DNA of 40,347 nt from a virus. A program made the position numbers and the translations under genes. Location of the stretch: the UHGV virus genome UHGV-0039399. One strand, given 5' to 3'. This document shows positions 7,973 to 26,711 of this stretch, in pieces; the stretch's first letter is position 1, and every line of letters starts with the position of its first letter. The notes below the pieces were generated by a model. The model did not search any database and was not told the DNA's origin. It saw only the letters and a list, made by a program, of their open reading frames with translations.

Positions 7973-8620
7973 TTATGGCAGGTTTACGATCTTCGCATCA
8001 ACAACCACGCCAATGATTTTTGATTCTGGATTCATAGGGATCGGCGGGTACAACGGATTAAGTGAACGCAAAAGTTTTCTGCCTCCATCAGTAATCAACT
8101 GTTTAAACGTCGGTGTCTGCCCTTCCTCCAGTTGGGCTATAACCAGTTTGCCATCAATAGCTGGCGCGTGCGGGTCAACAAGTATCATAGTACCCGCCGG
8201 GATGCTTAACCCCTGAGGCGCGTTCATTGATTCACCTTTGGCAACCAGCCAGTAACTATCATCTGAACAAATAACGCTAGTCGTAACGTGTGGTAATGTT
8301 GATCGGCGTGTGTCTTCCATATTGTTTGCTGCGTCCTTCCAGTCAACAACCGGGTAACTTCCTAAATCACGAGGTGGCGCTCCCGGCAACGTGTTAGAAA
8401 CAGAATCATCAATGACCATACCATCATGAGTAACAGTGAATTGCCGACGCCCAAGCGCCCGCATGATCCGCGCAATATCTTCAAGATTCGGCTCACGGCG
8501 ACCGTTCAGCCAGTGAGAAAGGCCACCTTTAGTTATCCCCATAAGATCAGCCAATGAATCCTGGCTCATGCCCTGCGCCCGCATGAGTTGTTTTGCTAAG
8601 TCATACCATTTTGTTTTCAT
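7973..8620 (-). CDS. cI: CI-type repressor (HTH plus LexA-like S24 peptidase domain)
   Basis: N-terminal XRE-type HTH (QDSLADLMGITKGGLSHWLNG) and C-terminal autocleavage domain with the GESM serine motif; divergent from the rightward operon. Confidence 0.9.
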   Translation of the reverse strand: MKTKWYDLAKQLMRAQGMSQDSLADLMGITKGGLSHWLNGRREPNLEDIARIMRALGRRQFTVTHDGMVIDDSVSNTLPGAPPRDLGSYPVVDWKDAANNMEDTRRSTLPHVTTSVICSDDSYWLVAKGESMNAPQGLSIPAGTMILVDPHAPAIDGKLVIAQLEEGQTPTFKQLITDGGRKLLRSLNPLYPPIPMNPESKIIGVVVDAKIVNLP

Positions 8621-10467: not shown

Positions 10468-11238
10468 ATGTCTGAATTAATGGTGTTTGATAACGTAAAA
10501 ATGACAAGCGCTGAAATTGCTGAGTTGGTCGGAAGTCGCCACGCAGATATTAAACGAAGCATTGAGAGGCTTGTTAAAAATGGCGTTATCCGGCAACCGC
10601 CAACGGCGTTTCTCGAAAGAATCAATAACTTAGGGTTTAAGGTAAAAGATGACGTCTACGTCTTTGAAGGGGAGCAAGGCAAGAGAGATAGTATCATTGT
10701 TGTAGCTCAAAACTGCCCTGAATTTACGGCACGACTTGTTGATCGCTGGCAGGAACTTGAAAACACAGTCCGGCAAAATGCTGTTCCAAATTACGGTAAC
10801 ACGCAGATCGGTAATGTTCTTGCTTTCGCAGAAACAGCAAGTCGAATGCTGAATATGAGCAATTCGGGTAAGCTGGGGATGCTACAGAAAATCGAAAAGG
10901 AATATAATATTCCTCCTATCCTTCCACATTATGCTATCGACGCTCCTGTTGATGCGGTAGACGGATCAAGTCGTGTGACCAAATCACTGACAGCATTGTT
11001 GGAAGAAAATAACGTTGGCATGACTGCGCGGGAGGTTTACCCAATCCTTGAGCGCAAGGGCATTGTTGAACGCAAGTATCGTAAAGCACGATGCGGCGAA
11101 AAAAGATTCTGGAATGTAACTGTGCATGGCCTGCGATACGGCAAAAACATAACCAACCCGTCTAACCAGAGAGAAACGCAGCCACACTTCTATGAATCAA
11201 GATTTAAAGAGTTGTTGAATATTATTTTTTCTGAATGA
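10468..11238 (+). CDS. Rha-family phage regulatory protein
   Basis: N-terminus MTSAEIAELVGSRHADIKRSIERL matches the Rha N-terminal DNA-binding signature; GGAG RBS. Confidence 0.7.
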   Translation: MSELMVFDNVKMTSAEIAELVGSRHADIKRSIERLVKNGVIRQPPTAFLERINNLGFKVKDDVYVFEGEQGKRDSIIVVAQNCPEFTARLVDRWQELENTVRQNAVPNYGNTQIGNVLAFAETASRMLNMSNSGKLGMLQKIEKEYNIPPILPHYAIDAPVDAVDGSSRVTKSLTALLEENNVGMTAREVYPILERKGIVERKYRKARCGEKRFWNVTVHGLRYGKNITNPSNQRETQPHFYESRFKELLNIIFSE

Positions 11239-12390: not shown

Positions 12391-12428
12391 ACTAAATGCA
12401 ATGCCGTAATGGCTCTGGAGGTGAATAT

Positions 12429-14312
12429 ATGACACCGAAAGAATTGGATTCGTTATTGTGGCAGCAAGTTGAGAAGGTGGCCCGTCACCTCCTGCCTAAC
12501 GGCAAGAAGGATGGGCATGAATGGGTAGCCGGAAATACTAACGGCGACAGCGGTAAGAGTCTGAAGATCAACCTCAACGGGAAAAACAAATGGGCTGATT
12601 TCGCTGAGGGTGAATCGGGCGACCTGCTTGATTTATGGATGTTGTGCCGTGGTATTCCACTCCACATTGCAATGAAGGAAGCTAAAGCATTTTTAGGCAT
12701 CAAGGACGATGATCATCATTTTGTGTCAAAGCAGGATAAGAAGTTTAAAAAGCCTGATCGGGAACACATAAGAAAATACTTATCGAAAGGTGAGCGCCAC
12801 ATTGAGTACCTGGAAGGCCGGGGAATATCAAGGGAGATCATCAAAAAATACGAGGTAACACTGGGTAAGGTTTTTGATGGCAAATCTAATCTTGATGCCC
12901 TGGTTTTTCCTTACAAACGTGACGGTGAACTACTGCAAGTTAAACGAATCGGGATTGATCGCCCTAACGGTAAAAAAATAATAATGGCAGAGGCAGAATG
13001 CGAACCTTGCTTGTATGGATGGAACGGACTGGATGATGGTGTGAGGGCTGTCGTTCTTTGTGAGGGTGAAATTGACTGCCTGTCTTACGCTCAGTATGGG
13101 ATTTCAGCGCTATCAGTGCCGTTTGGTGGAGGTAAGGGAGCAAAACAACAATGGATCGAATTCGAATATCATAATCTCGACAGGTTCGAGGAAATTTATA
13201 TTTCAATGGATAACGATGACGTTGGCAGGGAAGCGACAAGGGAAATAGCTACAAGGCTGGGTGAGCACCGCTGCCGAATGGTTAAGCTACCACGCAAGGA
13301 TATTAACGAATGCCTTACTGATGGCATCCCTGAGGATGAAATATGGAATTGCATCGCTTCGGCTGAATACTTTGATCCTGATGAGTTGTATTCTGCAAGG
13401 GAGTTTTATCAGGACACGATAAACGCTTTCTACGGAAAAGAGCAATACCTTTTTACTTCTCCGTGGGCAAAACTTAATTACAACTTCAAGTTTCGCGGCT
13501 CTGAGTTAACAATACTGAGCGGCTACAACGGCAGCGGTAAGACTGAGATCGTGGGCCATATGGTATTGGAAGCAATAAAACAGGGAGTCAAAACTTGCGT
13601 CGCATCACTTGAGATAAAGCCTGGCATATTGCTTAAGCGCTTAACCAGGCAAGCGACATGCTGCAACCAACCGCCAATGATTGAGATTGATTCAGCATTT
13701 AAACTTTATGATGACCGATTATGGATATTCGGTCTGACAGGGACGGCAAAGGCTGAAAGGCTGCTTGAAATTTTCGAATATGCGAGCAGAAGATACGGCG
13801 TTAAGCTGTTTGTTATTGACAGCCTGATGAAATGCGGGATTGGCGAGGATGACTATAACGGGCAAAAGGCATTCATCGATGCCATTTGTGACTTCAAAAA
13901 CAAAACTGGCGTTCATGTAATTCTCGTGACCCACTCAAGGAAGGGTATCTCTGAAGATACGCCGTCGGGGAAAATGGATGTGAAGGGTAGCGGCTCTGTA
14001 ACCGACCTCACCGATAACCTGTTAATCATCTGGAGGAACAAGAAACGCGAAAGATTGATGGCTGAACTGGCTGACTCGATGATGCCTGCTGATGCAGATC
14101 AACAAAAAATATTGAATGAGGCTAGTTCTTACCTGATTATGGAAAAACAACGAAACGGAGAAGGCTGGGAGGGCAAAATACCTTTAAGCCTTGATCTTAA
14201 TTCGCATCAATTCCTTGAACCAGACACGCCGTCGCCATACAGCTACATAGCCAACATGACAAAAGCAGATTATGACGAAGTGTGGATCAATGAAAACGTA
14301 ACCCTATCGTAA
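12429..14312 (+). CDS. bifunctional DNA primase / replicative helicase (TOPRIM plus DnaB/RecA-like ATPase)
   Basis: TOPRIM motifs (VVLCEGEIDCLS, SMDNDDVGRE) followed by Walker A GYNGSGKTE and Walker B-like VIDSL; GGAGGTG RBS. Confidence 0.85.
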   Translation: MTPKELDSLLWQQVEKVARHLLPNGKKDGHEWVAGNTNGDSGKSLKINLNGKNKWADFAEGESGDLLDLWMLCRGIPLHIAMKEAKAFLGIKDDDHHFVSKQDKKFKKPDREHIRKYLSKGERHIEYLEGRGISREIIKKYEVTLGKVFDGKSNLDALVFPYKRDGELLQVKRIGIDRPNGKKIIMAEAECEPCLYGWNGLDDGVRAVVLCEGEIDCLSYAQYGISALSVPFGGGKGAKQQWIEFEYHNLDRFEEIYISMDNDDVGREATREIATRLGEHRCRMVKLPRKDINECLTDGIPEDEIWNCIASAEYFDPDELYSAREFYQDTINAFYGKEQYLFTSPWAKLNYNFKFRGSELTILSGYNGSGKTEIVGHMVLEAIKQGVKTCVASLEIKPGILLKRLTRQATCCNQPPMIEIDSAFKLYDDRLWIFGLTGTAKAERLLEIFEYASRRYGVKLFVIDSLMKCGIGEDDYNGQKAFIDAICDFKNKTGVHVILVTHSRKGISEDTPSGKMDVKGSGSVTDLTDNLLIIWRNKKRERLMAELADSMMPADADQQKILNEASSYLIMEKQRNGEGWEGKIPLSLDLNSHQFLEPDTPSPYSYIANMTKADYDEVWINENVTLS

Positions 14313-15179: not shown

Positions 15180-15377
15180 ATGAACAGGGAATTGGAATTG
15201 ACAGTTGAAGACTTAAGCACAATTGCGGAATACATGCGCTGCGGCGATCCTGATAAGCCTGTTGTTGTTGATATGAGGTACTTAAAAAGCGCTTTTATGA
15301 CAAGCTCGCGCCTAATTTCTTTGCGGGCGATCATGTATGCGCGGGCACAGTGGAAAAATAGCAACGGTGTATTATGA
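15180..15377 (+). CDS. hypothetical protein
   Basis: Start refined to ATG with AAGGTGG RBS (65 aa); stop overlaps the ninB start. Confidence 0.4.
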   Translation: MNRELELTVEDLSTIAEYMRCGDPDKPVVVDMRYLKSAFMTSSRLISLRAIMYARAQWKNSNGVL

Positions 15378-15805
15378 GGCAAATAAGGTTTGAAATAGTT
15401 AACGACGCCGTAAAAGAAAACGCTATCAGGCAGATAAAGGAGATCCAGCCTGATAGCAAAAGCCCGCTGGTAATTACCATCCAGGAGAAAACCCGGTCGC
15501 TGAGTCAAAATGCGTTGCTTTGGGCGCTGCTGACAGACGTTAGCGATCAGGTTAACTGGTACGGCAAAAAGCTGTCGCCTGAAGATTGGAAAGCGGTATT
15601 TACTGCAGGGCTTAAGAAATATGGCGTTGTCCCTAATCTGGATAAATCAGGGTTTGTTGTGCTGGGTACGTCAACCAGCCGGATGAGTAAAGCAGAATTT
15701 AGCGAATTAATCGAACTGATCTACTCGTTCGGCGCGGAACATGGTGTTCAGTGGTCTGGCGATACGAAGTTAAACGAGGAATTTATAAAACGCTGGGGGC
15801 AATAA
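15374..15805 (+). CDS. ninB: NinB recombination protein
   Basis: Strong similarity to my recollection of lambda NinB (VITIQEK.RSL.QN, VVPNL...GFVVLG.STSRM, AEHGV.WS). Confidence 0.85.
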   Translation: MRQIRFEIVNDAVKENAIRQIKEIQPDSKSPLVITIQEKTRSLSQNALLWALLTDVSDQVNWYGKKLSPEDWKAVFTAGLKKYGVVPNLDKSGFVVLGTSTSRMSKAEFSELIELIYSFGAEHGVQWSGDTKLNEEFIKRWGQ

Positions 15806-15982: not shown

Positions 15983-16636
15983 ATGGCAAATAAAACACCT
16001 CGCGCAATAGGAACAATGATCCACAGATTCCGCGTTGATACTCCTCCTTTCGAAGTGACAACGTTTTCGAGTTATTACGATTTTGGTACGGAGTATTACG
16101 CAGGATCTAAGGTTGGCGGCGAATCTTATACGTTGATGGCTAATACGTGGCGCTTTGTGCGCTTCCCTGAAAAGGATGATGACGGTATGAACAAAGAAAG
16201 CGAAATTATTGATGAACTGATCGAAGATGAGCGCCATGATTGCGATATTCAACCAGAAAAAACGGAATGGTTGGCGGGAGAAAAACCTCCGGTTGGTGTG
16301 TGGCTTGATTGCGTGGGTCTTACGAGCGGAACGGTTCTCGATGTCGTTAAATTTAAGTATGTTGGTGATAAATGGGCTATATGTGAAAGCAAGGAAGAAC
16401 CATGTAGCGAGAGGCCGCTATCATGGACAACATGCGCATTCAGGATTCATGTTGGTCCGATAGAAAAGGCGCTTGCCGAAATAGCGTTCGCACTTGCCAC
16501 TAAGGTAATGGGTGAAGACGCGGCAAGCGAGATCGACTTTAGCCGTGACAGTGATTTTACGCGTGACTATCGCAATATGGCGCAAGCTATTATTGATGGA
16601 TGTATCGGACACGTTGAATACACGGGGAAAAGATAA
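15983..16636 (+). CDS. hypothetical protein
   Basis: 217-aa acidic ORF. Confidence 0.6.
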   Translation: MANKTPRAIGTMIHRFRVDTPPFEVTTFSSYYDFGTEYYAGSKVGGESYTLMANTWRFVRFPEKDDDGMNKESEIIDELIEDERHDCDIQPEKTEWLAGEKPPVGVWLDCVGLTSGTVLDVVKFKYVGDKWAICESKEEPCSERPLSWTTCAFRIHVGPIEKALAEIAFALATKVMGEDAASEIDFSRDSDFTRDYRNMAQAIIDGCIGHVEYTGKR

Positions 16637-16854
16637 TGGATAAGATCGGCGCAATACTCATTAATCGCGAGCAAGTGCAAAAAATGTTGGGCGGGCTTAG
16701 TAAGTCGGCGTTTTTTAAACTGGTTAAGAAGTGGAAGGATTCAGGTACTCCATTCCCTGAACCCGTTAAGGGGATGCCAGCATTAAAGCGCGGCGGTTAT
16801 CTTTACCGTTATCAGGATGTTATTTCATTTTGTAAATCAATGGGCTTCATGTAG
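16636..16854 (+). CDS. excisionase-like / AlpA-type small DNA-binding protein
   Basis: 72-aa protein with the excisionase-type HTH pattern (INREQVQKMLGGLSKSAFFKLVKK); adjacent to int, 3' ends overlap by 43 bp. Confidence 0.6.
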   Translation: MDKIGAILINREQVQKMLGGLSKSAFFKLVKKWKDSGTPFPEPVKGMPALKRGGYLYRYQDVISFCKSMGFM

Positions 16855-18011
16855 TAATCAGCCAGTTTATTCATCGCCTCGATTTGCTCCCTCACATAGT
16901 CATACTGATCGTATATAGCAAACATCCCCGCCAGCTTATGACCCAAAACCTTTTCCGCGACATGAGGCGCAACGCCAAGCGCTGAAAGGTTTGTCCTCAC
17001 GGTGCGGCGTAGATCGTGACACGACCACGGCTCGCCGCCCATCCTCATCATTAAATCCCTCGCTGCTGTTTTCGGCACGCTTCTGTCCACCGCAACATCC
17101 CTTCCAGAAAGCACAGGAACGAAGACAAAATCAAAGCTATGTAGATCCATAGCCTCACGCAATAAAGCCACGCTAACGTTCGATAAACCGCGTTTAAACT
17201 CATTCCTGTTCTTACTCAATGCACCAGGAACAGTCCACACGCAGCTATCAAGATCGAAATGCTCGCGCCTTGCGTTTGTCAGTTCGCTTGTCCTGCACCC
17301 GGTAAATATAATCAGCTTCATCAATATCTGGTTCAGTCGCGCCATTTTTGAACTATCTACAAGGCCGATTAGACGGTGGATCTCCTGTATTGACAAAACT
17401 CGCTTGCCTTGCGCTGGTTTTTTGCCTACGTCTTTAACGCACAGCAATGATATATCGTCACGATCCACGCGGCGGCGGCGAATGGCGTATTTTATTACGG
17501 CCTTCATTCTGTTGAGAACTATGCCTGCCTGAACTGGTGCGCCACCATTAGCTACCTTCCTAAAAACTCCCTCCCACATCATAGCGTCCATATCATCTAC
17601 AATATAGCTACCGTATGGTTTTATGACGTGCTTACCTAACATGGACTCAACCTGCTTATAGTTGACCATGTTCCTTGCCTGCGGCGATTCCATGTACTCC
17701 CTTACAATATCCTCAACCGTCGCCCGTGTCGTAACTCTGGAAAGGTGCATTCTTTTTGCTACCGATGGATCTCGTCCTGAGTTTAGTAATTCTTTATGCT
17801 CCGCCACCGCCGCCCGCGCTTCTTTGAGCGTTATTTCTCCGTATGTGCCAATCTTCATCCGTCGAGGCTTGCCGTTGAATCGGTAGCGATACTGGAAAGA
17901 TATAACGCCTCGTGGGCTTATCCTGGCAGACAATCCGCCAGCGTCCGGTAATTCCTCCGGGCCGTCGTACGGCTTGCCGTGAATGTTTCGTAATTTGGTA
18001 TCTGTAAGCAT
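16812..18011 (-). CDS. int: tyrosine site-specific integrase
   Basis: 399 aa; N-terminal arm-binding-type domain; C-terminal catalytic region with HDLRRT...LGH and conserved Tyr context. Confidence 0.95.
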   Translation of the reverse strand: MLTDTKLRNIHGKPYDGPEELPDAGGLSARISPRGVISFQYRYRFNGKPRRMKIGTYGEITLKEARAAVAEHKELLNSGRDPSVAKRMHLSRVTTRATVEDIVREYMESPQARNMVNYKQVESMLGKHVIKPYGSYIVDDMDAMMWEGVFRKVANGGAPVQAGIVLNRMKAVIKYAIRRRRVDRDDISLLCVKDVGKKPAQGKRVLSIQEIHRLIGLVDSSKMARLNQILMKLIIFTGCRTSELTNARREHFDLDSCVWTVPGALSKNRNEFKRGLSNVSVALLREAMDLHSFDFVFVPVLSGRDVAVDRSVPKTAARDLMMRMGGEPWSCHDLRRTVRTNLSALGVAPHVAEKVLGHKLAGMFAIYDQYDYVREQIEAMNKLADYYMKPIDLQNEITS

Positions 18012-18270
18012 GATTTTTGGTCACTATTTGGTACACACATTTTACGCATGGATAGTAACACGATGGGGAACGATATGACACGATAGAATAAATATTTCTT
18101 TTGAAATCAACACGAAACAGTGACGATGTGACACGATATGAAATGATAGAAATGGCGCTACCTACTTATCTTTTGAATGGGTAGCATGGAGAAAAACTAA
18201 TTTGTATTCAACATCTTATGCTTTGCTTTTGTTTTTGATTTATCAATTTGGTCACTATTTGGTACACAAA
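18012..18270. other. candidate attP / int regulatory region
   Basis: Immediately upstream of int: 22-bp perfect direct repeat TTTGGTCACTATTTGGTACACA (18016-18037 and 18247-18268) flanking reiterated TGACACGATA motifs (18074, 18128) and shorter ACGAT repeats. Confidence 0.4.
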
Positions 18271-18295
18271 AAGAAACGAGGCGTTAGCCTCGTTT
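18262..18295 (-). terminator. rho-independent terminator downstream of the tail fiber gene
   Basis: 9-bp stem AAACGAGGC-gtta-GCCTCGTTT followed on the minus strand by CUUUUUGUG. Confidence 0.55.
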
Positions 18296-18324
18296 CGCGC
18301 GGCGATGTTCTGCGCACATCACCT

Positions 18325-20883
18325 TTATTCTTCGCTTCCGGTTAACTGCAGGACAAGCTCTTCAAGTTTTGCGATCCGTTCATCCATGACGGCAATGTTG
18401 GCGCGTAGGCTTGCGTTTTCCTCTTCCAGTTCGGTTACGCGGTTATCTGTTTCGCGTGCCACCTGGACAAGTAAACCAGTCACCGCAGCATAGTCAACAT
18501 TGAGATAACGCGTTTCTTCGCGTAGCTCGTTGCCGTCAGTGGTCGGGCCTTGCAATGCTTCACCGTAATGAGTAAACGATCCTACCGCTTCCGGCAGCGC
18601 TTCCATGACTTCCTGAGCGATAACGCCAGCGTAAGGCAGGCCGTTTTCCTTAAGGGTGTATGTGTACCCGTTCATTTTACGGATTGCTTCGGTAGCGTCA
18701 CCTATAACCTGAATGTTGTCTTTCAGGTCGCGATCTGATGATTGATTGAGCGTAGTGCAATTTACTACGCCGTTAACCTGAAATTTAACCGTGTTATCTG
18801 TATTAAGCTGGCAGAAAAAACCGTAACCCAAGTTACTGCCACTATCTGGATCTATATAACTATATTCCAGAACAGATCCTCGAGTATCGCTACCCCAAAA
18901 CAACATTTCTAAGTTTTTTACTGCTGTTTTTTTTGTTTCGATACTAAAGCGTCTGACGAAATCAGAGTCGTAGATGGAAATTTTTTTTAATGTTGAATCC
19001 CCGTTAAGCACCTTAAGTTTAGGCACTTCTATTTCGTTATTGACAAAGTTGTAGCCAATGGCAGTCCCACCAACTGGCGTTTCCCAATGGTTTTTTTCTA
19101 TGCGCCAGTTGCCGCCGTCAAATATGAAAGCGTAGTCCGGCGCACCTTCAGGTCTGTCAGTCTCATCAAATTTAATTGTTGGGTGTGCGCTCGTCAAAGT
19201 TAATGGATTGCTTACGTTTGACATTAATTTTGCAGTTTTGCCTATAAAAGACCCTTGATTTAAAGCAAAGTCGCCGTCTTCGTTCAATCCTGCATATATG
19301 TTTATATCATTACGCTGTAGGTGAGTTGTTGCCCACGCCTTACCATCACCCCTAAACTCGGTGTAAATGCGCGTTCTTGCTCTTTGCGCTCCTGATGTAT
19401 TGCTGAGTATGCTTTGTAATATGCCTCCGTTAGTGGTTTCATTATCCGAAGAAATTACAAGATTGAGATTTTTAAATTGTGGGCTATCAGCAAAGTCTAG
19501 GGACTGAAATTTCTTCCACGCGCTCCACTCCCAGCCATTTGAAGACTGAATAATGTATTGGCGCATATAAAAAACGCCATTTATAGCATTGTAAGGGAAA
19601 TAAAGCTGAGTGCATCCTGATGCGGTATTCGCGCCGTTTTTTATAACAAGCAATGCACCAGCAGCTGCCAACGGATAGCCACGATCAGTCGTTGCAGCCG
19701 AATTCGTTGTCTGATAATAAAAACCAGAATACTCGCCGGTAAGTGTATTAATGTTGGTTTCACTTAAGGCTGATCTTTTCTCGTGCATAACTTCAAGGTT
19801 TGTGCGCGCTTGCCCTGCATTGCGTCCTGCTGTGCCGCCTTGTGCAATATCTAACGGTTTCCATTGACCGATCTCGCTATCATAAACACCCCATGCACAA
19901 TTATTGCCGATTTCAAAATAAATTTTTCCGTTGCCAGAGTAAAGGCGAGTCTGGCTATCTGCAATTTGCATTAGGCGACTAACCTCATCTTTTCTTGCGT
20001 GCCTTGTCCATTGCGGGCCTGTTGATTCGCTCCACTTATAAGTGTAAGCACTGCCGGTAATATGCCCTATAAAAAGACCAGAAAACGCCGGGACACTACC
20101 TAAAGTCGGGCAAATAAAGCCAGACAAATAGCGCTCACCTGAAGCAATAGAAGGCCACCCGGCAGCCCCTTCCATGATGCGCAGAAAGCCAAGATAGCCT
20201 GATGGGTTTCCTGAAATATCCGGGCAATCTCTTGGGTTTGAGGAAAGACCAATGCTACTCCCTACAATACCTTGCGCCTGGTTACGATAATTTAGCGCAT
20301 CGGCTGCTGATTTTGCTGCATTGGTTTCGCTGGTTGCTGCCGCTGTTTTGCTGTTGCTGGCTGCTGTTTCACTGGCTTTTGCTGCATCCTGTGACGCTTT
20401 TGCTGCGGTTGCTGAGTTCGCTGCTGCTGTTTTTGATGCCGCCGCCGCGTTTTTGTCTGATTCTGTTTTTTGGGCGTTGGCTGTTGATTTCGCTGTTTCT
20501 GCGCGAATGTCGGCAAGAAGTTGTTCCATCTGACCATCACCGCCGAACTCGTTCCACCATTCAACGGCTGTTGCAATCTCTGATTCCTTGCCCTGGTAGT
20601 AACGCAGAGTTTCGGCTACATCCTGGGCAAGCCCATCAACTGAGATCGAGTCAGAAAGCAGAATGCTAAATTTTGTCCCGGCAGCGATTGCAGGGTTAGC
20701 CGCTGGCGTTACTGACAGTTCTGTACCGCTCTTGATTTCGGTGACGGTAAAGATCTGGATAGGGTTGCTGATGGCAATAAGCGTGCAACCAACACGAATG
20801 AGAGAAAGCGGCTCGGAGAAGTTTGTCCCCGTGCCTTTAACAGTGTTGCCATTAACGGCAATTGTTCCAGTTGTGTAAATCAT
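18325..20883 (-). CDS. side tail fiber with C-terminal intramolecular chaperone (S74-type) domain
   Basis: 852 aa; Ala/Ser/Thr-rich fibrous repeats; C-terminus carries the SSDRDLKDNI motif and coiled coil typical of self-cleaving chaperone domains; GGAG RBS. Confidence 0.8.
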   Translation of the reverse strand: MIYTTGTIAVNGNTVKGTGTNFSEPLSLIRVGCTLIAISNPIQIFTVTEIKSGTELSVTPAANPAIAAGTKFSILLSDSISVDGLAQDVAETLRYYQGKESEIATAVEWWNEFGGDGQMEQLLADIRAETAKSTANAQKTESDKNAAAASKTAAANSATAAKASQDAAKASETAASNSKTAAATSETNAAKSAADALNYRNQAQGIVGSSIGLSSNPRDCPDISGNPSGYLGFLRIMEGAAGWPSIASGERYLSGFICPTLGSVPAFSGLFIGHITGSAYTYKWSESTGPQWTRHARKDEVSRLMQIADSQTRLYSGNGKIYFEIGNNCAWGVYDSEIGQWKPLDIAQGGTAGRNAGQARTNLEVMHEKRSALSETNINTLTGEYSGFYYQTTNSAATTDRGYPLAAAGALLVIKNGANTASGCTQLYFPYNAINGVFYMRQYIIQSSNGWEWSAWKKFQSLDFADSPQFKNLNLVISSDNETTNGGILQSILSNTSGAQRARTRIYTEFRGDGKAWATTHLQRNDINIYAGLNEDGDFALNQGSFIGKTAKLMSNVSNPLTLTSAHPTIKFDETDRPEGAPDYAFIFDGGNWRIEKNHWETPVGGTAIGYNFVNNEIEVPKLKVLNGDSTLKKISIYDSDFVRRFSIETKKTAVKNLEMLFWGSDTRGSVLEYSYIDPDSGSNLGYGFFCQLNTDNTVKFQVNGVVNCTTLNQSSDRDLKDNIQVIGDATEAIRKMNGYTYTLKENGLPYAGVIAQEVMEALPEAVGSFTHYGEALQGPTTDGNELREETRYLNVDYAAVTGLLVQVARETDNRVTELEEENASLRANIAVMDERIAKLEELVLQLTGSEE

Positions 20884-24300: not shown

Positions 24301-26711
24301 AAGTTTTCAGTCGGTTTTCCTGATGCCTCAACAAAGTCTGACACACCAAAGGCATTACGCGTGCGCACATAAACGTAATATTTATGGCCCGTGTTCATGC
24401 CGCCAAAAGTCCATTGGTAGCCGCGCCCGGTGAATTGCGCCAGCATGGTTACTTTTGATGGGTCTGTGATCTGGTTTTCACCTGAGTAATAAAACTCGTA
24501 TGCTGTATCAGTGGTCAGGGTTGTTTTGCTGATCGGATATACCGTTGCCTGGAAGACACCGGGAACCCAATTGACTCCAATCGGGGCTGCTGGCGCACCA
24601 ATAACCAGGTCAACAATACTTTCAGCACCCTTCATGCCAGTGTCATTACGCCCGCGAATACCAAGCGTGTAGCTGCCAGCATCCAGGCCATAAAAATCAT
24701 AGCGGTAATTCGTGGTTTCATAAGTTGCCACAATGCGGCCTTCGGTGTTATATACGCGTATTTCAAAGGTCAGGCGATGCGTTGTCGTCTGTGTTTCCCA
24801 TGTTGCGCGGCACTGGACTGTCTCAGAACCAACGTTTAACACCTTCAGATTTTCAATGTTCGGCACGCGGAAGTGATTAAGCGTGTCGTTGTTTACCTCG
24901 AAGATTGCGCCTTCATCAACTACAGCCTGTTTGTGCGGATCGTGCTGTGCAGCCTCAATGGTGTACACGCTGTTATTTTCGGTTTCCGCTACGCTGGTAA
25001 TTCGGCACAGAACAGGTTTTGCTGATTCAGTCGATACAGCAAACACGGTTCCGTTACGAATCCATGCTGGCGCTGACGCAAGGGTAATATTGTTTCCGTT
25101 AACCCCAGTGATCTGATGTTTTTTAAACTTGCCGTCGCTATCCAGTAAGCTGATAGTGTCGCCAGCCGCCACCAGATCAGAATCAACCTTGTCTACAGTT
25201 ATCACTTTCCCGTTATTCGCTACGATGCGACCGCCTAAACGAGCGGCTGCGCGGTTATTGTCGAGTATCTCGATAATATCCCCTGGGGTGAAGTGAATTG
25301 CGTCACGGGCCATTTTAAACGTGAATTTTGAGGGTTCGCGTTTTGCTGTTTCTATCAGCCATTTGCCAGCGCGGTACGCCTGCCCGCGTGACGTGCAACC
25401 GAAAGCCTCCAACGTGGTTTCGTTGTAACCATCGCGGGCGATCAGTTCGTCATCTGCCACGTATTCTTTTGATTGTTCCCAACCGTTTTCAGGGTCAGTC
25501 CATGACACGATAACGGCGTTGTAAGATTCTGCGCGAGCGATACTTGAACGAGTGAACGCGCCATCAACGACGTTTGCATTTGTGATAGTGGCAATTGGAT
25601 CTTGCGGTGCATCAATCATCACCGTAAGGCGCTGCCCGTCCCATAACGCGATACCACGGAACATGCCTGCAATGTTATCCAGCAAGTCGCGGGCGCTCAT
25701 TTGCTCCGTGATGTAAGCGTTAAGCGTCATGCGTGGTTCAAGGCCGCCGTAACCGTCGTTTACCAACTGGTCGCAGTATTGAGAAAGCGTATACAGTGCG
25801 CCGTCATCAACGTCGATGTAACCAGCGTGGCGGGCAAGCCCGAAGCGTTCATTTTTAACCAGATACCGGAAAAGCCACGCAGGGTTGTTGGTGTATGCCT
25901 TTTTGAAGCCACCAAGCCATAAGCCTGAATACGTGCGCGTTTCAGGGTCGTAGTTATCAGGCACATCAACAATCAGACCGCGCATGTGATAGGTGCGTGT
26001 CGGGGTATCAGTATACTGATCGTGGTCAATTACCGCGCCTGCTACAGCGGTGTGAGGATAAGATAAATTATCGTCGATTATCTCGCTGTAACTGCCCCAT
26101 CTGGTGTCATTGCGAAGTAGATCGCTTTTGCTGTCTGGCGTTACGCGACGAACGCGAATATCAAACGGTTTTTCATCCGGCGCCTGGATGATATGCGCTT
26201 CCATGTACTCGCCGCTTTGTTTACCAGGGCCAATTGTAATGCCTTTAACCAGTGACCACGATGTTGAGGATGAAGGCTTAACGTCAACCGCCAGCGTAAC
26301 CGATGTGTTGTATTGATTGCCCTTATCATCTGACTGAACCAAAGCATCAACGCCGAGATTCAGCCTTACGCGGTTAACGTTTGGATCTGAAACGGTTCGG
26401 ATTATTGGCGTATCGTGAGTTACTTTTGCGTTAACAATAACGGTTGATTCAATGGCGTTGAATCCGTTGATTGGTGACTGGTCAGCCGTACCATTACGCC
26501 ACGCCACGCTAACGCCAGGGACTGATGTACCTCCGTTGGCGTCAGTGATTGGGCTGTCATTAAGCATAACGCTGTTTAATGGCGCTTTCTGGTTTACAGG
26601 TCCGTAGATTGGGCCTTCGCTGAGAATGTCCAAAACGCGATAAAACTGTTTATGAAACAGGTTATCGTTTAATAATGTTGGTGTTTTGGCTTTGCCGCCG
26701 CCGCTACTCAT
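21333..26711 (-). CDS. J: central tail fiber / host specificity protein J with expanded coiled-coil stalk
   Basis: 1792 aa; N-terminal region and C-terminal domain align with my recollection of lambda gpJ; a roughly 660-aa repetitive coiled-coil insertion lies between them. Confidence 0.9.
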   Translation of the reverse strand: MSSGGGKAKTPTLLNDNLFHKQFYRVLDILSEGPIYGPVNQKAPLNSVMLNDSPITDANGGTSVPGVSVAWRNGTADQSPINGFNAIESTVIVNAKVTHDTPIIRTVSDPNVNRVRLNLGVDALVQSDDKGNQYNTSVTLAVDVKPSSSTSWSLVKGITIGPGKQSGEYMEAHIIQAPDEKPFDIRVRRVTPDSKSDLLRNDTRWGSYSEIIDDNLSYPHTAVAGAVIDHDQYTDTPTRTYHMRGLIVDVPDNYDPETRTYSGLWLGGFKKAYTNNPAWLFRYLVKNERFGLARHAGYIDVDDGALYTLSQYCDQLVNDGYGGLEPRMTLNAYITEQMSARDLLDNIAGMFRGIALWDGQRLTVMIDAPQDPIATITNANVVDGAFTRSSIARAESYNAVIVSWTDPENGWEQSKEYVADDELIARDGYNETTLEAFGCTSRGQAYRAGKWLIETAKREPSKFTFKMARDAIHFTPGDIIEILDNNRAAARLGGRIVANNGKVITVDKVDSDLVAAGDTISLLDSDGKFKKHQITGVNGNNITLASAPAWIRNGTVFAVSTESAKPVLCRITSVAETENNSVYTIEAAQHDPHKQAVVDEGAIFEVNNDTLNHFRVPNIENLKVLNVGSETVQCRATWETQTTTHRLTFEIRVYNTEGRIVATYETTNYRYDFYGLDAGSYTLGIRGRNDTGMKGAESIVDLVIGAPAAPIGVNWVPGVFQATVYPISKTTLTTDTAYEFYYSGENQITDPSKVTMLAQFTGRGYQWTFGGMNTGHKYYVYVRTRNAFGVSDFVEASGKPTENFDEISDYVMKDVMESEQFKGMIGDIKDLGDRADLIESATNDLKNATDNLKTATDNLTNITDDLRVETDNLINITDELRTDTDGLITETGAIKADTDTLKKETEDLYKKVGENADDIGHHEARIDSLEVSSEKVGSELAQAKASLQNASLALINNSLAQTNTRVTLTAQYKKGRTETKAEIDRIDNVIAEEKKATAESLETITAEMNTMDSNLKGQISSVERAVADEASARAEAINGVNASISNLDKKTDASVNRLDQAIADETNARTQAVSDVNASVSSLDKKTDASVKRLDQAIADETSARTEAISGVNASISTLDSKVTSNVTRIDKAIADETKARTDAISGVKASIDTLEGNTNSEVKRLDQSIADEASARAQAVSDVKASISNLESKTDASVSRLDKAIADETQARSAAITDVNADLTTLENSTNASVKRLDQAIADESSARAEAISGINAEIGSIENSVDKNSDDINQTKASLQNASIALINNSIAQTNTRVTLTAQYKKGRKETNAQIDRIDSVIAEEKKATAEAIGVVKASITDLDKKTDASVSRLDKAIADETNARSEAISGVNASINTLESNTESEVSRLDQAIADEASARAQAISGVNASISTLDGKVTSNVTRIDKAIADETKARTDAINSLNSSLTSTINSKVSEVSTALSTHEASSAEKFGQISASFESVNSSITEWSQAMATADEALSNKIDQLTVTVNGNTTAIQTTSKALTDFKGNVDATYSIKLATDNNGMKYATGMSLGLTGNGTNVQSQCIFLVDRFVLMTAANGTYTAPFYVSNGAMYVKEAFIKNASIGTAKIADAAITTAKIAQQIQSTNYAAGSSGWMINKNGSAELNNVTVRGAVYASSGKFSGSLEAKTFIGDVANMYTGSDVSRTRDGELVKTITYTDTSDAAHSRHVCVMANVKGYGGCTITIGGSSKASMVDGTERLVMHSSAVTSKSVTVTIKVSAQNSKGAYIQSPTVIVSRGSGSFSG
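22190..24200. repeat. in-frame tandem repeats within J (84-bp/28-aa units, acidic heptads, and a duplicated block about 1 kb apart)
   Basis: Repeated protein unit RLDQAIADETxARxEAISGVNASISxLDxKTDASV about 12 times; the anchor KASLQNAS(L/I)ALINNS(L/I)AQTNTRVTLTAQYKKGR occurs twice (DNA near 22880 and 23880). Confidence 0.8.

Follow-up and report, generated by a model that had tools for sequence, protein, structure and literature searches.

Within a 40,347-nucleotide stretch of viral DNA, UHGV virus genome UHGV-0039399 (the window in what follows, always at its full length), the region 16636-18296 is read, with a probability of roughly 0.85, as the site-specific recombination module of a temperate coliphage of the mEpimmI group that carries a 'type II' integrase. 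The region holds a small excisionase-like (xis-like) gene, the integrase gene int, which converges on it, and the phage attachment site (attP), which spans about 18016-18268 (~250 bp); tail fibre gene, repeat region and int are contiguous. Overall, this is an ordinary system of heterobivalent integrase, recombination directionality factor (RDF) and attP of a temperate E. coli phage, composed of the following features.

16636-16854, plus strand: xis-like gene, encoding a basic (pI 9.9) winged-helix/helix-turn-helix (HTH) protein of 72 aa, a candidate RDF
16812-16854: 43-bp overlap of the convergent 3' ends of the xis-like gene and int
16812-18011, minus strand: int, encoding a 399-aa heterobivalent tyrosine integrase of P4/CP4-57-like architecture, mEpimmI 'type II'
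18016-18037, plus strand: left copy of a 22-bp direct repeat, 5 bp upstream of the int ATG, in the putative int 5' leader; proposed distal pair of arm-type Int sites of the P arm
18052-18060, minus strand: candidate int promoter, an extended -10 element (TGTTACTAT) with a weak -35 element, GTGTCA, at 18081-18076, predicted by a relaxed scan
18060-18089, plus strand: inner repeat cluster A, three ACGAT(A/G) units in 10-bp phase with one TGACACGATA
18123-18152, plus strand: inner repeat cluster B, ACGATG, ACGATA and ATGATA (18143) in 10-bp phase, ending 3 bp before the core
18155-18174: attP core, with 17 of 20 positions common to attB in abgT and perfect identity over ACTTATCTTTT (18164-18174)
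18206-18218, plus strand: weak integration host factor (IHF)-like site ATTCAACATCTTA in the P' arm, with one mismatch to WATCAANNNNTTR
18247-18268, plus strand: right copy of the 22-bp direct repeat; proposed pair of arm-type Int sites of the P' arm
18273-18296, minus strand: intrinsic terminator of the tail-fibre late transcript, a 10-bp stem with six GC pairs followed by TTTTTGTG, adjoining the right 22-mer at the outer edge of attP
18325-20883, minus strand: tail fibre gene, with a Peptidase_S74 C-terminus

The reading is supported by the junctions of related prophages. On the int side, the match to the window (16600-18500) ends at 18174 in 13 complete E. coli genomes, and for most of them the annotation along the match finishes with a fragment of AbgT. 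The int side of the prophage in strain 2017C-4173W12 gives way to a 99-nt 3' fragment of abgT, then to ogt and fnr, while about 54 kb away an abgT gene without its C-terminus precedes the tail-fibre side, which matches the window from 18155 onward; abgT is split there into pieces of 1443 nt and 99 nt that flank a prophage of ~54 kb. The core was located by lining up attP, attL and attR (both junctions) with the empty attB of K-12. Aligned in this way, attP reads GGCGCTACCTACTTATCTTTTGAATGG and the K-12 attB TTGCCCTATCCACTTATCTTTTTGGTGG, and GCnCTAnCnACTTATCTTTT is common to the empty K-12 site and window positions 18155-18174. The phage recombines with attB in ACTTATCTTTT, a sequence within the 3' end of the host gene abgT, the neighbour of ogt, and after integration int and the P arm are found at one end of the prophage, with the P' arm and the tail fibre gene at the other. 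The hybrid junctions should read ...CCACTTATCTTTTGAATGG at attL and ...CTACTTATCTTTTTGGTGG at attR. An earlier note on this DNA had seen an att-like region upstream of int and had suggested mapping phage-host junctions in lysogens; carried out in silico, this mapping identifies the region as attP, both 18174 (13 genomes) and 18155 (2017C-4173W12) falling inside 18012-18270, with the core between the 22-bp repeats and adjoining TGACACGATA units.

The position of the crossover can be narrowed further. In strain N1286 the junction switches from phage-like sequence, up to ...CCTA, to host-like sequence, from TGGTGG, which places the exchange within CTTATCTTTT. Nine type II attP sites in phage form all carry TTATCTTTT (18166-18174) unchanged; because no type II attP that was read departs from it, strand exchange must occur in 18166-18174. 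To the left of this invariant core, at 18155-18163, the attP sites of L002, L025 and L039 and the attR of 2017C carry an attB-like TATCC in place of TACCT; these host bases could have entered the phage by earlier exchange or by branch migration that went past the minimal core. The inverted repeat that flanks the core (GCTACC...GGTAGC in the window, GTTATCC...GGATAAC in phage MagusPhagus) was considered as a pair of core-type sites or a hairpin and was rejected. The RNA fold of the attP minus strand (z-score -4) was likewise set aside, its signal being largely that of the terminator hairpin. By sequence, integration makes AbgT end at residue 481 of 508, the phage TGA following directly after CTT ATC TTT. 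The last 27 residues of AbgT (LVVWLLMLLAWYLVGLPIGPGIYPRLS) are lost by sequence, and the target gene is not restored (window 18165-18176 joined to codon 479). Since a tRNA scan found no tRNA gene in the window, where no Rfam family was matched either, the site is not a tRNA-targeting att site. The core sits between both 22-mers, 3 bp past the second ACGAT cluster, and the window therefore has an intact attP, in phage, circular or tandem-prophage form; the earlier note, from the contiguity of tail fibre, att region and int, had concluded on phage-form or circular DNA, which agrees with the intact attP, but tandem prophages would look alike.

The product of int has the domains expected of a heterobivalent tyrosine recombinase. 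Pfam recognises an N-terminal arm-DNA-binding domain (Arm-DNA-bind_3, PF13356, residues 2-87, E 8e-21), Phage_int_M and a C-terminal catalytic domain (Phage_integrase, PF00589, E 9e-17) with the R..H-x-x-R..H..Y residues, which by inspection correspond to TGCR(240), H332-D-L-R335, LGH(358) and Y367. The protein matches the PHROG 1 integrase family at 4e-63, and for its N-terminal domain there are matches among solved CP4-like integrase N-domains, 3ju0 and 3jtz. As befits such an enzyme, attP and attB share the short core ACTTATCTTTT (18164-18174) and the prophage ends are hybrid attL and attR sites. The gene starts at a conserved ATG at 18011, giving MLTDTKLRN; the longer start annotated in mEp010 (1236 nt) was rejected, as a 2-bp difference puts it out of frame in the window. 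Integrases of type II and type Ib share 51% identity overall and ~70% in the first ~90 residues, the arm-binding domain (counted from the alignment), a similarity that is likewise noted in the main text of PMC11893012.

At its 3' end int overlaps the xis-like gene by 43 bp, open reading frames (ORFs) 16636-16854 (plus strand) and 16812-18011 (minus strand) sharing 16812-16854. The overlap had been described in the earlier note, together with the identities of both genes; these are upheld by the excisionase-like predicted fold of the 72-aa protein and by the arm-binding domain of the tyrosine recombinase. The tail-to-tail arrangement is kept in every relative examined, with an identical 43-bp overlap in the annotation of mEp010 and MagusPhagus and 61 bp in mEp021. 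The 72-aa product is a small basic protein with a predicted winged-helix fold, whose gene adjoins int and whose model has an AlpA-family excisionase as its best structural match; it is probably the excision factor. Among PHROG families there is only a weak match to a 'DNA binding protein', and its own family is very small: a word-indexed search gives 29 members, and HMMER, run in full against 1.84 billion representatives, gives 23. Identity to the AlpA-family excisionase of GIsul2 (PDB 8c3t) and to RdfS (8dgl) is at most 22%, and the 72-aa protein differs from them in its longer wing and in matching neither AlpA nor HTH_17 in Pfam. The type II protein is 44% identical to that of mEp021, and the protein differs again in LSU61, mainly in the HTH. 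In LSU61, an E. coli O157:H7 prophage, a xis-like ORF (MDKTATLLLTTARIREMLGGISRTTF..., L047 5376-5612) lies between a 654-nt gene and int, unannotated in RefSeq.

The phages to which the module belongs are known. In int and attP the window is 92-95% identical at the DNA level to coliphages mEp010, mEp013 and mEp044, which have the same gene order and the same insertion point at the 3' end of abgT; MagusPhagus is 86.5% identical to the region. According to the main text of PMC11893012 (Front Microbiol 2025), mEp010, mEp013 and mEp044 belong to the mEpimmI group, whose integrases are sorted into types I-IV: type II phages, these three among them, insert at the 3' end of abgT, type I targets ydaM and type III targets mppA. 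The same text gives UMNK88, RM9245, GN04592, GN05505, E21845, 190, 127, MLI107 and 09-00049 as type II, and these nine strains are among the 13 genomes with abgT prophages found here. The window has an int sequence of mEp010 type, prophages with this int lie at the 3' end of abgT, and the window is placed firmly as part of the genome of an mEpimmI coliphage, in phage form, that aims at abgT. Near-identical phages with this integrase type and target gene have thus been described before; new here are the core at base level, the architecture of the arms, the candidate excision factor and the comparison across types. The words excisionase, Xis, attP and direct repeat do not occur in the main text of PMC11893012, nor do base-level coordinates of the core, of both arms and of the probable excision factor.

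The repeats of attP fall into two sets. The 22-mer TTTGGTCACTATTTGGTACACA, already recognised in the earlier note as a perfect direct repeat upstream of int (18016-18037 and 18247-18268), is present in the window in exactly two perfect copies, 231 bp apart, and no further copy with up to six mismatches occurs in the window; chance exact 22-mer pairs in 40 kb amount to ~5e-5 by a uniform-base estimate. Each copy is built from two TTTGGTnnnnn units, 11 bp apart. The second set is formed by ACGAT, which occurs five times in 18012-18300 (18060, 18070, 18080, 18123 and 18133), always on the plus strand, where 0.28 would be expected from the window-wide rate; TGACACGATA is found at 18076 and 18129, with one more far-off copy at 25503. 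The IHF-like site is the single one-mismatch site in attP, for an expectation of 0.37 per 300 nt. A terminator is annotated at the equivalent site of mEp010, and in IMG/VR loci the right 22-mer adjoins the terminator whatever the type of the flanking sequence. The first unit of the 22-mer, GGTCACTAT (18016-18024), resembles the lambda arm-type consensus, (C/A)AGTCACTAT; this is probably a coincidence, because CACTAT varies in relatives and the N-domain of Int belongs to a different Pfam family.

Comparison across integrase types separates the two sets. The 22-mers are spaced 231 bp apart in nine attP sites of type II and 241 bp apart in two of type I, and the position of the left copy is conserved in type II and type I (mEp021, L040) and, in the form of TGGTRCACA pairs, in type III LSU61. 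In type I sites both arms carry the 22-mer, with no more than one change in any copy and three variable positions overall, in the spacer between the TTTGGT units. The core and inner sequences of type I are unrelated to those of type II: in mEp021 and IMG/VR L040 (type I, ydaM) the sequence between the repeats bears no relation to the window, and GAACGGAT-type repeats replace ACGAT. LSU61 carries pairs of TGGTRCACA units on both arms, and its inner repeats are different again (GTTTACGC). Within type II, inner cluster A is conserved in all attP sites. The 22-bp repeats of both arms are accordingly conserved alongside the N-domain of Int, which makes them candidate arm-type sites, and both the 72-aa protein and the inner P-arm repeats change with integrase type.

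The simplest reading of these patterns takes the 22-mers for paired arm-type sites of Int and the phased inner repeats for type-specific sites of the excision factor; the two sets probably bind different proteins. Each 22-bp repeat would constitute a tandem pair of arm-type sites held by the N-domain of Int, ~155 bp to the left and ~97 bp to the right of the crossover, in a lambda-like geometry. The 72-aa xis-like protein would polymerise on both ACGAT(A/G) clusters, on the int side of the core, and bend the P arm, leading to excision. The suggestion of the earlier note that the repeats of the region are arm-type sites would hold for the 22-mers, which look like Int arm sites, but not for the ACGAT/TGACACGATA units, which look like sites of the excision factor.

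The layout also bears on the expression of both genes. int points away from attP, and the P arm is its upstream region in phage and prophage alike. Because the DNA past the core is host DNA in the prophage, the int promoter can lie there only in 18012-18164; the earlier note had located it in 18012-18270, correctly as regards the region upstream of int but too widely for the prophage. The candidate extended -10 element has variants in relatives, TGTTAATAT in mEp021 and TGATACTAT in MagusPhagus, 2017C and other type II phages, and its position at 18060-18052 puts the left 22-mer in the predicted int leader. int would have a weak promoter of its own within the P arm, with the left repeat in the leader, and Int, perhaps together with the xis-like protein, would repress int, as in KplE1 and P4. 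The xis-like gene would be expressed separately, as the last gene of the early operon. It closes a plus-strand series of genes that comes after a divergent CI-like repressor gene (7973-8620) and passes through replication genes and NinB. The equivalent series of mEp021, where N-like antitermination acts at nutL, comprises gp14 to gp02, with nutL upstream of the repressor gene gp15; by analogy, we infer that the series ending in the xis-like gene is a nutL-controlled early operon. A terminator scan found no terminator between xis and int, which together with the conserved tail-to-tail overlap makes antisense interference with int in lytic growth plausible: transcription past the xis-like gene would run antisense through int.

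Several observations weigh against the interpretation given so far, as a whole or in its parts. Both junctions were read in one lysogen only, 2017C-4173W12. In the inverted repeat flanking the core, left and right variants mix freely among nine type II attP sites, with no covariation. A scan of 18012-18300 with the strict sigma-70 consensus yielded no promoter, and the candidate extended -10 element, ~14 bp upstream of the left 22-mer, is weak, yet conserved. The 72-aa protein matches no Pfam family even at E 10, Phage_AlpA (PF05930) and HTH_17 (PF12728) included, and no NCBIfam family, and Foldseek returned nothing significant for it; of its 17 distant relatives, nine match HTH_23 and one HTH_17 at 0.0028, and HTH_28 and HTH_29 matches also occur among them. 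Finally, the proposed assignment of the 22-mers to Int and of ACGAT to the xis-like protein is drawn from co-variation across three integrase types.

The roles of the repeats might be reversed or shared, the ACGAT/TGACACGATA units being the arm-type sites of Int and the 22-mers binding the xis-like protein or a host factor, or forming an int operator. The ACGAT units are direct, ~10 bp long and near the core, as many arm-type sites are, the left 22-mer, being in the int leader, is placed as an operator would be, and Int and the xis-like protein both vary by type, so that co-variation cannot cleanly separate them. This exchange of roles is nevertheless unlikely, since the ACGAT units are confined to one arm and are replaced by unrelated repeats in types I and III despite conserved Int N-domains, whereas the 22-mers lie on both arms and are conserved together with that domain. 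That the 22-bp repeat is functionless, either a duplication scar left by the insertion or exchange of an attP cassette or a product of chance, is very improbable. The wholesale difference between the repeats from one integrase type to another does look like a swapped cassette, and two IMG/VR contigs have exactly one copy with nothing between; chance, however, is excluded by the expectation given above, and a scar should have decayed, but 19 of 22 positions do not vary between types I and II, the changes lying in the TTTGGT spacer, and type III retains the paired half-site design with another sequence.

The 72-aa protein could also act in transcription, as a regulator of the AlpA, Cox or Vis kind that, for instance, represses int or activates genes elsewhere, and be dispensable for excision, with directionality provided by another protein. 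Its place outside the curated excisionase families, the matches of its relatives to general HTH families and its MerR-like winged helix, which is common to regulators and small terminase subunits, would suit such a role. This is quite unlikely, though, in view of the excisionase that is its top structural match, of a gene that adjoins and overlaps int in every relative examined, and of a divergence that parallels the integrase type; moreover, the nearby ORFs 15374-15805 and 15983-16636, the only two others scanned, match no excisionase family. The two roles are in any case compatible, as TorI and Vis perform both (PMC2951348).

The interpretation of the module as an integrase, RDF and attP system can be set beside better-known examples. 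The attP of lambda covers ~250 bp, with distal arm sites in both arms, direct repeats on the Xis side, IHF sites and a short core. The site described here shares with it the ~250-bp length, the proposed distal arm sites at about -155 and +97, the short common core, the direct repeats on one arm by the core, where Xis would act, and a possible IHF site. It differs in that int and xis converge and are not co-transcribed, with no retroregulation of the sib type, in the N-domain of Int (PF13356, not PF09003) and in a xis-like protein outside the lambda Xis family. Closer parallels are found in KplE1 (CPS-53) with IntS/TorI, HK620, Sf6 and P4 with Int/Vis, which share the DUF4102-type arm-binding domain of the integrase and an int gene that points away from att, its promoter region being the att arm; in these systems the int promoter overlaps the att arm, and int and the RDF gene are transcribed separately (PMC2951348). 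Unlike them, the window phage targets protein-coding abgT and not a tRNA gene, and its RDF gene adjoins int, in tail-to-tail overlap at the end of the early operon. In KplE1 and P4, Int and the RDF are documented repressors of int (PMC2951348), whereas int autoregulation is proposed from the layout here.

Some relatives have lost attP or the whole integration module. In L024 (~10833-10920) and L036 (~1250-1335), IMG/VR 3300045988_076816 and 3300045988_064823 respectively, the int start codon is followed by a single 22-mer and then by the tail-fibre terminator; relative to window positions 18016-18268, exactly the 231 bp between repeats are gone, including the whole core and the inner repeats. 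The repeats may have mediated the loss of attP, which would leave the phage integration-defective, or the assembly may have collapsed on the repeat. L049 (3100-3260; Logan SRR25448384; window ~16796-18304) has a deletion between copies of the microhomology GCGCGGCG, which in the window lie at 16788-16795 and 18297-18304. The deletion takes the 3' part of xis together with the whole of int, attP and the terminator, leaving L049 without an integration module, and the fused ORF P0025 runs into the tail-fibre region. Outside the module, the window differs from mEp010, MagusPhagus and the abgT prophages in its replication genes: at 12396-14312 (plus strand) it encodes a 638-aa primase-helicase with Toprim and DnaB/AAA_25 domains, where the others have a separate gene and, after it, one for a ~470-aa 'replicative DNA helicase', and the replication module is therefore mosaic within the mEpimmI group.

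The module is standard and poses no challenge to current understanding. A broader proposal, which is held tentatively, is that the attP of mEpimmI phages combines a fixed scaffold with an exchangeable specificity cassette, that its repeats cause occasional loss of attP and that the gene overlap silences int in lytic growth. If so, the scaffold would consist of the N-domain of Int, the paired TGGTnCAC(A) arm sites of both arms and the late terminator, and the cassette of the core-binding and catalytic domains of Int, the core, the excision factor and the phased repeats of the P arm. An exchange of the cassette would redirect the phage from one to another of three neighbouring host loci, dgcM/ydaM, abgT and mppA; the 22-bp repeats would cause the occasional precise loss of attP, giving rise to integration-defective phages, and, through the tail-to-tail overlap of xis and int, early transcription under antitermination would be able to silence int in lytic growth. 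The comparison of integrase types amounts to a clean natural experiment, on a small scale, in how integrases of the heterobivalent kind acquire a new target while keeping their arm architecture, and it could guide retargeting experiments.

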